A program made the position numbers and the translations under genes. Shown here in pieces: positions 16,238 through 20,340 of a stretch of DNA of 57,405 bases. The stretch is from a virus. Lineage: Duplodnaviria; Caudoviricetes. Location of the stretch: positions 1-57,405 of IMG/VR virus record IMGVR_UViG_3300036834_000217; one strand, written 5' to 3'. The notes under the pieces are model-generated. The model saw nothing but the letters and a program-made list of their open reading frames with translations. It ran no database searches and had not been told where the DNA came from. The stretch's first letter is position 1; every line of letters starts with the position of its first letter.

Positions 16238-16630
16238 ATGAGCAGGTCTGGGTACACCGAGGAGTGCTACAGCGAGTGGGATCTGATCCGCTGGCGCGGC
16301 GCGGTCAGGAGCGCGATCCGAGGCAGGAGAGGTCAGGCATTCCTCCTGGAGATGTTGTGGTCCCTAGACGAGATGCCCGCGAGGCGCCTGATCGAGGGCG
16401 CGCTGATGGAGGGAGGCGAGATCTGCGCCCTTGGTGCGGTCGCCGCCCACCGCGGCACGGACGTGTCCGGGGTCGACCCCGAGGACCGGGAGACCGTCGC
16501 GGCGACGTTTGGGATAGCGCTCGCCATGGCCGCGGAGATCATGTACGAGAACGACAAGTTATCTGGCGAGACGCCCGAGCAACGCTGGTACCGCATGAGG
16601 CGCTGGGTAGAGGCGAAGATCGTCGAGTGA
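16238..16630 (+). CDS. Conserved hypothetical phage protein
   Basis: MSRSGY...RWRGAV.SAIRG.RGQAFL...CALG...EIMYEND...ETPEQRW.RMR.WV. Confidence 0.7.
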   Translation: MSRSGYTEECYSEWDLIRWRGAVRSAIRGRRGQAFLLEMLWSLDEMPARRLIEGALMEGGEICALGAVAAHRGTDVSGVDPEDRETVAATFGIALAMAAEIMYENDKLSGETPEQRWYRMRRWVEAKIVE

Positions 16631-16639
16631 TCTAGCGAG

Positions 16640-18766
16640 GTGGCCCCGTCCCACGCCGTGCTGGTCGGTCACGTGCTCTCGCGCCTCGGGGAGCTGCCCG
16701 ACGAGAGCGTGCACTGCGTGGTGACCTCGCCGCCGTACTACGGCCTCAGATCATACGGGACGGAGCCGCAGGTGTGGGGCGGTGATCCGAAACACGATCA
16801 TGTCTTTGGCGAAGAGCAAATCCGCGGCGGATCGGCGCAGAAACAAGGTGCCTCATCGCAGCGGGCCGGCCGCGCAAATGTCGAGGAGCAATCCGGCCAA
16901 TCAAATTCGCAAGGAGCATTCTGCCACTGTGGCGCATGGCGCGGCGACCTGGGGCTCGAGCCGACGCCGGAGCTGTTCATTGCGCACATGGTTGATGTGT
17001 TCCGCGAGGTGCGGCGGGTGCTCCGCAAGGACGGCACGCTGTGGCTCAATATCGGGGATAGCTATGCTGGTGCCAAAGGATTCCGACCGGAACACGCGAA
17101 TACATCGACACTCAGCGGCGGCAAAAATCACATAGGCCTGGGCCGTGGCGCTCCGATACCCGCCGACTGCAAAGCAAAGGATCTCCTAATGATCCCCGCC
17201 CAACTAGCGCTCGCGCTGCGGGCCGGATTTTCTCGTTGCTCAGATTGCAATCGAGAGCTTCGATCGGACTTGTGGCCGGTTTGGAACGGGCACCGCTTTT
17301 GCCCAGATTGCCCGCGCAGCAAGATTATTCCGACAGAGCCTGGCTGGTGGCTGCGGTCTGAGATTGTGTGGGCGAAAAAGGCGCCGATGCCGGAGTCGTG
17401 CACCGACCGGCCGACCTGCGCGCACGAGAAGGTGTTCCTGCTGACGAAATCAGCCCGGTATTTCTACGATGCCGAGGCGGTGAAGGAAGAGGGTGAAGGC
17501 TACGGTCGATCAAACTGGCCGGCAATGCAATTCAAGGGCGGCGACATTACTCGCGGTCACGGCACAAAAGGTATTTCAAAGGGCACGAGCACTCATACTT
17601 ACGAGGGCGGGCGCAACATGCGCAACGTCTGGCATCTCGGCCCCGAGCCCTTCAGCGGCGCTCATCTAATGCGTGACGTAGGCGGTGGCAGTGGTCGCAT
17701 AAGGTCACCAGATTGTCCACTGCATGGGGATCGACCGACTCTGGCGTCCAAGGCTGATCGTGGTGCACGACAAGGCGTTTCTCGGTCTGCCCGCAATCAC
17801 AACAGCGATGCCCGTCCCGCTCTAGGGCTATTCGCCGAGCCCGCTCCCATTGAGCTGACCCGCGGCGAGCGCTCTGAGGACGATAATTTGGGTTCGCCAT
17901 ACCCTGCATATAGCGGCTCTGCCAAGCCGCATAGCACTCAAATCCGCAGAACGGACCCCGATGCCGAGATTTCGCCGCATGTGATAGCCGACGCATTATC
18001 GGCTTCCCACACTGGCGACAGTGCACTTCCACTCGATTCAGTCGCCACATCCGTCCGCATTCCCGAGAACAGTAGCGCGGCTGATATCCGGGACGAGTCT
18101 TCGGTTCAAACGAACGGCCACAGTGCTGACAAGTGTTCATGCAAGCAATCTAGCACACTTACAGACCACTTCGCGACGTTCGTGAGCGAGATCCCGCGCC
18201 GCGCCATCCTCGCCGGCACCAGCGCTGAGGGCGTCTGCCCGAAGTGCGGGGCGCCTTGGGTGAGGGTGGTTGAGAAGTCTGTGGTGTGGCCGGAAAAGCG
18301 TGGCGGTGTCGGTAACAATGCAGACCGCGGTGATGGCGGGCTCGCGTGCAATGCTGATCGGTCATCCCAGACCATCGGCTGGCGCCCATCCTGCTCCTGT
18401 GATACACTCGAAATTGGCTGCAGCGGCGTGGAATGCTACGGAGACACGCTATCAGGCGATGCGAGGGGTAGCGACCTCGGGAAGATAGCTTGTCGTGGGC
18501 CTGGGTCGGCAAAAGCCGACCTAAGCGAACGACTGTGCGATGGGGCGGCCAAACAGTCCCGCGTCGGGGTAACGTCCGACCTGCAGCCAATACCAGCCAC
18601 CGTCCTAGACCCATTCCTCGGCGCGGGAACGACCATGATGGTGGCCGACCGCCTGGGTCGGAACTGCGTCGGCGTCGAGCTTATCACGGAGTACGCCGCC
18701 ATGGGTGGTAGGCGCCTGGAGCGCGACGTCGGGCCCCTGGTCCGCGGGAGCGTGGAGGTGAGGTGA
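16640..18766 (+). CDS. DNA methyltransferase (N4-C/N6-A, beta class) with in-frame insertions
   Basis: Catalytic 'VVTSPPYY', 'GTLWLNIGDSY', 'WLRSEIVW.K..PMPES..DRPT..HE', 'HFATF', SAM-binding 'VLDPFLGAGTT'. Confidence 0.9.
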   Translation: MAPSHAVLVGHVLSRLGELPDESVHCVVTSPPYYGLRSYGTEPQVWGGDPKHDHVFGEEQIRGGSAQKQGASSQRAGRANVEEQSGQSNSQGAFCHCGAWRGDLGLEPTPELFIAHMVDVFREVRRVLRKDGTLWLNIGDSYAGAKGFRPEHANTSTLSGGKNHIGLGRGAPIPADCKAKDLLMIPAQLALALRAGFSRCSDCNRELRSDLWPVWNGHRFCPDCPRSKIIPTEPGWWLRSEIVWAKKAPMPESCTDRPTCAHEKVFLLTKSARYFYDAEAVKEEGEGYGRSNWPAMQFKGGDITRGHGTKGISKGTSTHTYEGGRNMRNVWHLGPEPFSGAHLMRDVGGGSGRIRSPDCPLHGDRPTLASKADRGARQGVSRSARNHNSDARPALGLFAEPAPIELTRGERSEDDNLGSPYPAYSGSAKPHSTQIRRTDPDAEISPHVIADALSASHTGDSALPLDSVATSVRIPENSSAADIRDESSVQTNGHSADKCSCKQSSTLTDHFATFVSEIPRRAILAGTSAEGVCPKCGAPWVRVVEKSVVWPEKRGGVGNNADRGDGGLACNADRSSQTIGWRPSCSCDTLEIGCSGVECYGDTLSGDARGSDLGKIACRGPGSAKADLSERLCDGAAKQSRVGVTSDLQPIPATVLDPFLGAGTTMMVADRLGRNCVGVELITEYAAMGGRRLERDVGPLVRGSVEVR
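17652..18140 (-). CDS. HNH endonuclease with N-terminal Zn-finger repeats, nested antisense inside the MTase
   Basis: CxxC...YCSxxC repeats; 'W...R...LERDGHRCCDCG...LVVHH......DNLVTLCDHCHRLRH'. Confidence 0.85.
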   Translation of the reverse strand: MNTCQHCGRSFEPKTRPGYQPRYCSRECGRMWRLNRVEVHCRQCGKPIMRRLSHAAKSRHRGPFCGFECYAAWQSRYMQGMANPNYRPQSARRGSAQWERARRIALERDGHRCCDCGQTEKRLVVHHDQPWTPESVDPHAVDNLVTLCDHCHRLRHALDERR

Positions 18767-20340
18767 ACGTCGAGAGGAGGATCATCACCGGGCTAATTGT
18801 CTCCGCCGACTACCTCCGGCGCGTCGCCCCGTTCTGGGATGACGACCTGCTGGAGGGCCCGGAGTTCCGCCGCATAGCGGGGTGGTGCCTGGAGCACTTC
18901 GCCGAGTACCACCGCGCCCCCGACCGGGACATCGAGCAGGTCTACCTCGACGCGATCAGGGCGGAGTCCGTCCCGAGGGCTGAGGCAGAGCTGATCGAGG
19001 ACGTGCTCACCGCCGTCTCGGACGAGTACGATCGCGGCGACGAGTTCAACTCCGCGTACCTGTTCGACCAGACGGTCAGGCACTTCCGCGACCGCGAGCT
19101 GGTGCTCCACACCGAGGCGGTCGCCGACCTGCGCGAGCGCGGGCAGCTGGCCGAGGCCGAGGCCCTCGCCGCGTCGTTCCGCCCGCGGAGCTGGGCCACG
19201 AGCCGAGGTCTCGACGTCGGGACCGAGCCCGGCTACGCCCGGGTCCGCGCCGCGTTCGCCCAGGCGGCGAGACCGCTGGTGCGCTATCCCGGCGCGCTCG
19301 GGGAGATGCTGAGCCCCCACCTGGTGCGGGACGGCTTCGTAGCGCTCATGGGGCCCGAGAAGCGGGGCAAGACGTTCTGGCTTACCGACATCGCGTTCCG
19401 CGCGCTGAGGCAGAAGTGCAACGTGGCCTTCTTCCAGGCCGGAGACATGACCGAGAACCAATACCTGCGCAGGATGTCGATCCACCTGGCCAGGAGGTCG
19501 GACGACCCGCGCTACTGCGCTCCCCACTGGCGCCCAGTCGGGGACTGCGCGCTCAATCAGTTTAACCGCTGCGGCCGCCCGGACCGTAACTGTGACCACG
19601 GGGTCTTCGGCGAGTTTGAGGCGTTCAGGGACGACCCGAACAGCTTCCAGGACCTCGCGAGGCTGTCCGCCGCGGCGGAGGCTGACCCGTCCTATCGGCC
19701 GTGCGACAGCTCCGCGTGTGATCAGCGCTGGCCGGTCTCCTGGCTGGAATACGTCTCGGGGAGGGCGCCCCTCGACGCCGCCGCGGCGGAGCGCGTTGTC
19801 AGGGCGTTCTTCGAGAGGCACAGGAGACGATTCCGCCTGGTGACGTACCCGTCCGGTACGCTGACGTGCGTCGAGATGACGTCGTGCATGGATGAGTGGG
19901 AGCGGCAGGACGACTTCGTCGCCGACGTCATCATCGTCGACTACGCCGACATCATGGCCGCGAGCGAGCGCGAGTTCCGGCACAGGCAGAACGAGGTGTG
20001 GATGGGCCTGCGCGGCATCAGCCAGGAGCGCCACGCCCTCGTGGTGACTGGCACCCAGGCGGACGCCGACAGCTACCGGTCGGAGCTGCTGGGGATGGGA
20101 AACTTCGCCGAGGACAAGAGGAAGTTTTCCCACGTCACTGCCATGTTCGGGCTCAACCAGGACCCGAGGGGGCGCGAGAAGGAGCTGGGCATCATGCGTC
20201 TCAACACCATCGTCGCCCGCGAGGGCAGCTACTCCCCGAGGGACGTGACCCACGTGCTTCAGCACCTCGCCGCCGGCCGCCCGTTCACGGAGAGTTACCG
20301 CGTCGGCTACCGCCCGGCCGCTCGCGAGGGACCGACGTGA
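18763..20340 (+). CDS. dnaB: Replicative DNA helicase (DnaB-like)
   Basis: Walker A GPEKRGKT, Walker B IIVDYAD, 'TGTQA', 'AEDKRK'. Confidence 0.85.
   Translation: MNVERRIITGLIVSADYLRRVAPFWDDDLLEGPEFRRIAGWCLEHFAEYHRAPDRDIEQVYLDAIRAESVPRAEAELIEDVLTAVSDEYDRGDEFNSAYLFDQTVRHFRDRELVLHTEAVADLRERGQLAEAEALAASFRPRSWATSRGLDVGTEPGYARVRAAFAQAARPLVRYPGALGEMLSPHLVRDGFVALMGPEKRGKTFWLTDIAFRALRQKCNVAFFQAGDMTENQYLRRMSIHLARRSDDPRYCAPHWRPVGDCALNQFNRCGRPDRNCDHGVFGEFEAFRDDPNSFQDLARLSAAAEADPSYRPCDSSACDQRWPVSWLEYVSGRAPLDAAAAERVVRAFFERHRRRFRLVTYPSGTLTCVEMTSCMDEWERQDDFVADVIIVDYADIMAASEREFRHRQNEVWMGLRGISQERHALVVTGTQADADSYRSELLGMGNFAEDKRKFSHVTAMFGLNQDPRGREKELGIMRLNTIVAREGSYSPRDVTHVLQHLAAGRPFTESYRVGYRPAAREGPT

Follow-up and report, generated by a model that had tools for sequence, protein, structure and literature searches.

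Nuclease genes hidden inside phage DNA methylase genes have precedents. The ShiLan domain, an HNH nuclease with zinc fingers, is concealed in an insert of actinophage DNA methylases (Arsenault, Gosselin and Gogarten 2025, PMC11855218; Gosselin et al. 2023, PMC9957025); its authors consider the insert to be tolerated as a loop and have proposed leaderless translation of the nuclease (PMC11855218). The same study reports a second, unrelated hidden nuclease open reading frame (ORF) inside the gp60 methylase of Pacc40 (PMC11855218, section 3.6); in phages Tiff81 and Sashimi, related methylases are preceded by free-standing HNH genes (PMC11855218). For a nuclease encoded on the same strand as the methylase, the principle has already been described. 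Here we analyze an HNH endonuclease gene nested antisense within a DNA methyltransferase (MTase) gene of the IMG/VR viral contig IMGVR_UViG_3300036834_000217, a stretch of 57,405 bases with an estimated completeness of 69% (hereafter, the window). We consider it probable that this gene is a mobile element of the homing type, which is tolerated within its host gene by antisense dual coding. The principal features of the locus are as follows.

16640 to 18766, plus strand: MTase ORF, 708 amino acids (aa), which reads through the insert
16724 to 16738, plus strand: MTase catalytic motif IV, TSPPY (residues 29-33), with S30, P31, P32 and Y33 invariant in the MTase alignment (A1)
17612 to 17665, plus strand: conserved MTase block RNMRNVW...EPFSGAH, directly upstream of the insert
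17666 to 18169, plus strand: insert of 504 nucleotides (nt), or 168 codons, with zero stops in the MTase frame, delimited by motif spacing relative to insert-free homologues
17652 to 18140, minus strand: HNH endonuclease coding sequence, 162 aa plus a TGA stop, supported by its ORF and by Pfam, PHROG and PDB matches
18167 to 18181, plus strand: conserved MTase motif HFATF, directly downstream of the insert, with H510, F511 and A512 invariant
18608 to 18634, plus strand: MTase S-adenosylmethionine-binding motif I, DPFLGAGTT (residues 657-665), which shares its frame with motif IV

The enclosing ORF matches Pfam PF01555 (N6_N4_Mtase, E = 3.8e-27), the match being broken in two by the insert, and phrog_67, DNA methyltransferase (E = 5.7e-43). 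This profile match, together with the presence of motif IV and motif I in one frame, identifies it as a beta-class enzyme of PF01555, and its relatives in the PDB include 2zie and CcrM (6pbd). When the MTase was aligned with homologues drawn from a collection of 5.8 billion proteins, the RNxRNxW block and HFATF were found to be separated by exactly 10 residues in insert-free enzymes, a typical sequence being ...GPEPFPEA followed at once by HFATF(P), but by 178 in the window MTase, which puts the length of the insert at 168 codons (504 nt). An earlier note, made from the sequence of the window, had claimed an insert of this size at 17666-18169 without a plus-strand stop, an intact zinc-finger HNH protein of 162 aa on the minus strand, and an HNH stop lying within the FSGAH codons of the MTase, and all three claims are borne out. 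The HNH stop (the reverse complement of 17652-17654) falls within the F and S codons of EPFSGAH, and only 29 nt of the insert are not covered by the HNH ORF. The predicted protein matches Pfam PF01844 over residues 113-157 (25.6 bits, with a cut-off of 21.4; E = 1.3e-5), PHROG 1271, annotated as 'HNH endonuclease' (E = 2.2e-25), and the phage HNH protein of PDB 5h0m over residues 87-162 (E = 5.7e-5). Its metal-binding and catalytic residues map to two segments.

17934 to 18131, minus strand: two N-terminal Cys4 zinc fingers of the HNH protein (C4, C7, C24, C28 and C41, C44, C65, C69)
17673 to 17804, minus strand: HNH catalytic core (C113, C116, H126, H127, N143, C148, C151, H152, H156)

A search of the protein collection for the HNH family (E <= 1e-3) returned 42 proteins, 40 of which were aligned with the window protein (alignment A2, 41 sequences). 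This alignment has 15 invariant and 34 nearly invariant columns, which include all the Cys, His and Asn ligands: the zinc-finger cysteines are invariant or near-invariant across the 41 family members, and the catalytic His and Asn residues and the CxxC...CxxC ligands, all present in the window, are invariant or nearly so. In the collection, almost every family member stems from a contig of about 0.6-3.5 kb, and the record of the window itself contains the MTase only. Gene callers retain the long MTase ORF and discard the HNH gene, a blind spot of annotation.

The genomic context was examined in DNA retrieved with the HNH alignment rather than with the MTase, a choice that kept the sampling blind to whether the opposite strand was open. 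We fetched the best 80 of 167 relatives in IMG/VR, all 8 of 8 in species-representative genomes, and the best 80 of 120 in metagenome contigs. The first two sets together with the window comprise 45 distinct close HNH relatives, and 43 of these are complete and lie within a long antisense ORF bearing MTase motifs. Of the other two, one (L029) is truncated by the contig end, its remaining part being open in the MTase frame, and the other (L043), with an HNH protein 39% identical to that of the window, is the sole close relative that is not nested, as it does not lie in a recognizable MTase. The metagenome set yielded 76 distinct matches, 11 of them already known and 65 new. In the window and in all 108 relatives, the HNH gene is on the strand opposite to the MTase, and all nested loci share one insertion site, between PF(S/P) and xxH[FY]A, and one relative frame, in which position 1 of the MTase codon is opposite position 1 of the HNH codon, position 2 is opposite position 3 (wobble), and position 3 is opposite position 2. 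Members of the family occur in uncultivated viral contigs and in metagenome-assembled genomes (MAGs) labelled Actinomycetota, Patescibacteria, Acidobacteriota, Planctomycetota and Gammaproteobacteria, with a GC (guanine plus cytosine) content of the HNH gene between 44 and 67%. One Solirubrobacterales MAG carries identical nested HNH copies on contigs of 1.1 Mb and 0.48 Mb (L082 and L083); either two prophages or a duplication in the assembly may account for them. Among 50,697 GenBank phage records, there was no close relative of the nested HNH (the best match, at 37% identity, is free-standing); MTase coverage of at least 80% was found in none of 172 records, and a search of the same phages at the DNA level gave short matches to the MTase core only.

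The MTase-relative frame contains no stops in any of the 43 complete distinct nested loci, and this result was replicated in the metagenomes, where all 65 further distinct loci are open as well. Combined, 108 of 108 distinct relatives are stop-free. Motif IV and motif I flank the insert in one open frame, in the window and in its relatives. The two remaining antisense frames of the 43 loci contain 0-9 and 4-23 stops, respectively (7 and 10 in the window). The probability of finding no stops was estimated by permuting synonymous codons inside each HNH gene, 2000 times per locus, so that neither the protein nor its codon usage changed: it ranges from 0.001 to 0.175 per locus (median 0.018) and is 0.115 when the window is taken by itself, and the log10 P values sum to -77 when the loci are taken as independent. 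The control set consisted of 31 distinct, distantly related HNH genes that are free-standing; in the corresponding frame, each of them has 1-23 stops and none is open. The open MTase frame is not a chance effect.

Conservation at synonymous sites of the HNH gene gives a second indication of selection on the MTase frame. The wobble base varies freely at most HNH codons, and conservation of the MTase-frame peptide is correspondingly low (consensus fractions mostly around 0.2-0.5). There are two fixed exceptions. All 41 loci use CAT for His139 of the HNH protein (overall, 298 CAT vs 174 CAC), and all 41 have C as the wobble base of residue 142 (33 GAC and 8 GGC; overall, 173 GAC vs 172 GAT). These codons write an MTase-frame Cys, Pro and His in fractions of 0.98, 0.84 and 0.93 of the loci, respectively. 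Among the 9 free-standing controls that could be aligned, the His139 codon is CAC in 5 and CAT in 4, and the wobble base of residue 142 is mixed. Both reading frames are under selection. The resulting MTase motif, CxxH, has a partner, CxC, at the other end of the insert.

17714 to 17725, plus strand: CPLH in the MTase frame, over HNH codons 139-143; proposed zinc ligands C359 and H362
18134 to 18142, plus strand: CSC in the MTase frame, over the HNH start codon; proposed zinc ligands C499 and C501

The CxC motif is located 9 or 14 residues before H[FY]A and, in many loci, outside the HNH ORF; the wobble bases of its Cys codons and its middle codon vary, as expected for selection at the protein level. 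Among 76 distinct inserts with both ends available, 71 have CxxH and CxC, 3 have neither, and in 2 CxxC replaces CxxH, a His-to-Cys change. The two motifs thus covary (Fisher p = 1.4e-4 for the 76 inserts), and the four putative metal ligands may join the two ends of the insert as a zinc clasp. An AlphaFold2 model of the MTase, run on an alignment of 77 sequences, has a confident core (229 residues with a predicted local distance difference test score, pLDDT, of at least 90; predicted template modelling score, pTM, 0.70), and insert residues 367-494 have pLDDT < 50 and no secondary structure, that is, are predicted to be disordered.

Signals that could drive expression of the HNH gene are embedded in the MTase codons.

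18147 to 18155, minus strand: extended -10-like box TGCTAGATT, 6 nt before the HNH ATG, inside MTase codons

The box that the earlier note had placed 6 nt before the ATG was found again, and a box of this kind recurs at -12 across the family; the position of TGCTAGATT suggests a leaderless HNH transcript in the window. When the 60 nt upstream of the HNH start were surveyed in the 43 loci, TAnnnT peaked at -12 (12 of 43 loci) and at -34 (8 loci), against a mean of 1.2 per position. In 16 of the 43 loci, including the window, TAnnnT lies at -14 to -11, the leaderless layout, and none of these 16 has a Shine-Dalgarno (SD) site. Among the remaining 27 loci, 18 have an SD site, which in 16 is combined with a -10-like box at -43 to -31, the leadered layout. 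Thus, 32 of 43 loci fit one of the two layouts, HNH start codons are kept, and TTGACA-like -35 hexamers are present in several loci. These conserved promoter-like signals are encoded within MTase codons, a recurrent F-Y of the MTase frame being the reverse complement of the -10 box.

Among MTases, the insert has a patchy distribution and a history decoupled from that of its host gene. A tree of MTases with the insert removed has 121 rows, 41 with the insert, 77 without it and 3 with short inserts, and requires 15-16 changes of insert state, of which the starred branches alone force at least 5-6. The window MTase groups with three insert-free enzymes (96* support) inside a clade of 55 rows (97*), 52 of which are insert-free. 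A single clade of insert-bearing MTases is rejected by the approximately unbiased (AU) test (p = 0.024, log-likelihood difference 187), which was run on 38 of the 41 insert rows (three long branches were dropped) and 37 of the 77 insert-free rows (40 were left out). The pairwise identities of HNH proteins and MTases are uncorrelated (R2 = 0.001 for 406 pairs): three loci (L004-L006) have HNH proteins 66-67% identical to that of the window and MTases just 39-49% identical, and the closest MTase by identity, at 64%, is an insert-free one (P0018). The gene occupies one fixed conserved site, is sporadically distributed, and has a phylogeny incongruent with that of its host gene, features by which homing genes are recognized. 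To judge from these comparisons, patchiness combined with a decoupled phylogeny is the pattern expected of homing, with transfers that all appear to be old.

Short inserts of 34-61 residues were seen at the same site in four MTases (P0100, P0095, P0105 and P0116). That of P0100 is a remnant of 34 residues resembling the two ends of the insert without the core, which suggests that the nuclease core can be lost; those of P0105 and P0116 contain a Cys/His-rich piece of about 60 residues. The short inserts may be decay products or an independent mini-domain. Contigs from soil runs that overlap 17640-18190 carry fragments of related MTases, one bridging the site without an insert and another entering an insert of the other subtype. 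Related alleles with and without the insert therefore co-occur in these soils, in other organisms; this is not evidence on the phage of the window.

Taken together, these observations are compatible with the following scheme. The element would be a compact module composed of an internal promoter, an optional SD site and a zinc-finger HNH gene of about 160-210 codons, set in reverse at one fixed site of a phage N6/N4 MTase gene, between ...PF(S/P) and (x)xHFATFP. Because the insert is a multiple of three and stop-free in the MTase frame, the MTase would be translated straight through it and would remain active, the roughly 170 extra residues, mostly poorly conserved, probably forming a disordered surface loop whose ends would be tied by a Cys-x-x-His ... 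Cys-x-Cys zinc clasp. The HNH protein would be produced from its own antisense transcript, presumably leaderless in the window, and would cut or nick insert-free MTase alleles of co-infecting phages, whereupon repair would copy the element in. It also appears rather likely that the window represents a large family, spread over phages and prophages of several bacterial phyla and counting at least 108 distinct members, in which an antisense gene of about 500 nt is fully nested in a dual-coding arrangement, both strands are selected, the promoter lies in host codons, and the zinc clasp has evolved in the host protein.

Several points weigh against this scheme. The nearest HNH relatives are at most 67% identical and the nearest MTase relatives at most 64% identical, so no recent homing event is visible; nor did the collection of 5.8 billion proteins contain a near-identical allele with an empty site, the best non-self match by BLASTP being 53% identical. 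The element may no longer be mobile. Many branches of the MTase tree are weakly supported, and the AU rejection is only modestly significant (p = 0.024). The summed shuffle probability overstates the significance because the loci share ancestry but were treated as independent. A two-hexamer sigma-70 scan of 17400-18500 found 0 promoters, the window having an extended -10-like box without a -35 element, and the runs matching the window sequence are two soil DNA runs, with no RNA run among them; for these reasons, expression of the HNH gene is something that we infer. The proposed clasp residues have pLDDT values of only 53-67 in the AlphaFold2 model, so that the argument for the clasp is one of conservation and covariation. 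Finally, the strict conservation of Cys and His in the MTase frame could mean that the loop has gained a function of its own and is not purely selfish.

The main rival explanation, which we regard as unlikely, is a domesticated partnership of nuclease and MTase, in which the HNH protein no longer homes, or never did, and forms with the MTase a pair resembling a restriction-modification system or directed against competitors. The nuclease would attack DNA lacking the mark of the MTase, and nesting would secure co-inheritance and coupled convergent expression. Such a partnership would fit the confinement of close HNH relatives almost exclusively to this MTase family (108 nested loci vs a single non-nested one, L043), the lack of visible recent transfers, and the long-term purifying selection on both products. 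It would also agree with the convergent orientation, in a simple motif scan, of 2 of the 31 distant free-standing relatives (L060 and L062) with N6_N4 MTase genes. However, a fixed site within the most conserved motif of the MTase is a hallmark of homing rather than of an operon partnership, and the nuclease is missing from most of the close MTase relatives (77 of 121 rows). Furthermore, the uncoupled histories of the two genes would be unexpected for co-adapted partners with matched specificity, and there is no sign of methylation sensitivity of the HNH protein.

The two convergent arrangements differ in detail. In L060 (2959-4678), a free-standing HNH gene of 192 aa (PF01844, E = 2.8e-9) converges on the gene for an MTase of the window's family that has no insert (440 aa, PF01555, E = 4e-51), and the two ORFs share about 180 nt at the 3' end of the MTase. 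The layout may resemble the ancestral one, or the nuclease may be a free-standing homing endonuclease located next to its target. In L062 (2971-5928), an HNH gene of 182 aa is convergent to, and slightly overlaps, a gene for a fusion protein of 811 aa (Helicase_C + N6_N4_Mtase).

A second explanation, in our judgment very improbable, inverts the roles of the two frames: the MTase-frame insert would be a functional zinc-binding or DNA-recognition module, and the HNH ORF a silent relic of the ancestral sequence. The conserved and covarying CxxH and CxC motifs are what such a module would leave, but the MTase-frame peptide is otherwise poorly conserved and AlphaFold2 predicts most of it to be structureless, while the HNH frame retains every catalytic and zinc ligand, its start codons are kept, and promoter or SD signals persist in most loci (32 of 43). 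Least tenable of all is removal of the insert before the protein is made or used, by an unrecognized self-splicing intron or an atypical intein, with the open frame being incidental or serving against polarity: the position in a host gene and the patchy distribution do resemble those of introns and inteins, and antisense homing endonuclease genes are known in nuclear group I introns (PMC9548176, in the part of its text available), but an Rfam scan of 16500-19000 on both strands gave 0 matches at E <= 1, the 29 nt outside the HNH ORF leave little room for an intron, the insert starts with LMRD and ends with TLTDH followed by F, with no N-terminal Cys, Ser or Ala, no +1 Cys, Ser or Thr and no terminal His-Asn, its length preserves the MTase frame in every case, all 108 of 108 loci being free of stops, and selected MTase-frame residues at HNH-synonymous sites would be pointless in a segment that is never translated.

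The specific splicing candidates were rejected accordingly, an intein by the unfit boundary residues and by the lack of any intein or Hint domain in the Pfam analysis of the 708-aa protein, and a group I or group II intron by the lack of a ribozyme core in the same Rfam scan. The earlier note had likewise reported no intein residues and little room for an intron, and its central proposal, a homing-type HNH gene tolerated without splicing by read-through on the opposite strand, is supported by every comparative test that was run; plus-strand stops in homologous inserts, which it had named as grounds for abandoning that proposal, were found in 0 of 108.

Beyond the insert, the MTase gene of the window has some further peculiarities. 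Its neighbors are replication genes, encoding a replication-initiation-like protein and a DnaB-like helicase, and directly upstream (16238-16630) is an ORF of 130 aa with a full-length match to phrog_25637, of unknown function (E = 1.1e-42). The GC content is about 0.58-0.62 over the entire MTase gene (16700-18700), not over the insert alone, compared to about 0.66-0.78 in the flanks, which suggests that the MTase gene as a whole arrived relatively recently in the phage. Two more lineage-specific in-frame insertions (17237-17311 and 18407-18600) are missing from most relatives; inspection of the strand opposite to them revealed no credible ORF. The first is a zinc-ribbon-like piece, CxxC...CxxC, of about 40 residues between ALRA and GWWLRSEIVW, and the second consists of about 60 residues before PIPATVLDPF, with AlphaFold2 pLDDT < 50 over residues 599-636. 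At the site of the zinc-ribbon-like piece, another MTase (P0069) has an insert of about 190 residues, which looked LAGLIDADG-like by eye; Pfam at E <= 1e-3 gave no support for this assignment, and it was rejected. A Logan contig of 734 nt from a soil DNA run covers 17463-18196 with zero differences from the window; the run may be the window's own sample, and the contig is thus not independent support.

If the proposed scheme is correct, homing elements that are translated through, antisense as here or on the same strand as in ShiLan, would constitute a third route to harmlessness, beside introns and inteins, and few long antisense gene overlaps in prokaryotic viruses would be as well supported as these nested genes. 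The existence of long antisense overlapping genes in bacteria and phages is disputed, and the family provides strong evolutionary evidence, with 108 of 108 loci open, fixed synonymous sites and covarying ligands. It would also present a host protein that has adapted to a selfish insert by means of a putative zinc clasp, and a promoter that lies inside the protein codons of the opposite strand. From a practical standpoint, HNH enzymes specific for a site in a conserved MTase motif are possible reagents.

Several known systems resemble this one in part. Zinc-ribbon HNH nicking endonucleases of phages, like the present protein, combine an HNH core that includes a CxxC pair with additional zinc ribbons (PMC3592412, in the part of its text available; PDB 5H0M), but are free-standing, are encoded beside terminase genes and have a role in DNA packaging (the same part of PMC3592412). 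Inteins and group I introns likewise combine a selfish nuclease gene, antisense in some cases (PMC9548176, again in its available part), with a conserved host site, sporadic distribution and harmlessness; they are removed by protein or RNA splicing, whereas the evidence here favors translation through the element. The hidden nuclease of Pacc40 is AP2-like, and so of another type, and occupies another site, but the free-standing HNH genes described in the same work alongside insert-free methylases parallel the arrangements of L060 and L062.

The closest likeness is to the ShiLan domain. There, too, the methylase frame is stop-free through the insert, the HNH gene is in an alternative frame, no intein or intron signature is present, the distribution is disjunct, with an R2 between insert and methylase of 0.001 (0.001 here as well), and AlphaFold predicts a low-confidence loop away from the core (PMC11855218). 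A literature search of articles without their supplements or the ShiLan repository found no published antisense HNH gene read through inside a methyltransferase, and the words 'antisense', 'reverse', 'opposite' and 'complement' are absent from the available text of PMC11855218, the supplementary survey of which could include antisense cases. The differences are substantial. The ShiLan HNH is encoded on the same strand as the methylase, in the third frame, whereas that of the window is antisense; in gp142 of phage Optimus, a ShiLan carrier, we found the HNH match on the gene's own strand with a frame offset of 1. The Optimus insert follows the N-terminal DPPY region (approximately residues 115-320), whereas the present one directly precedes HFATFP, and the MTases belong to different subfamilies. 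The similarity between the HNH proteins themselves is marginal (32% identity over 75% of the query, E = 9e-3). ShiLan is known from mycobacteriophages, whereas the window family has its members in uncultivated viral contigs and in MAGs from several phyla, and neither internal promoters nor a CxxH/CxC clasp has been described for ShiLan (PMC11855218). The novelty here lies in four points: the nuclease gene is antisense, its family is large and broad, its promoters are embedded in coding sequence, and a set of Cys and His residues covaries in the host frame. The idea of an HNH nuclease hidden in a methylase reaches the opposite strand and extends far beyond actinophages, so that translation through a homing element looks general.

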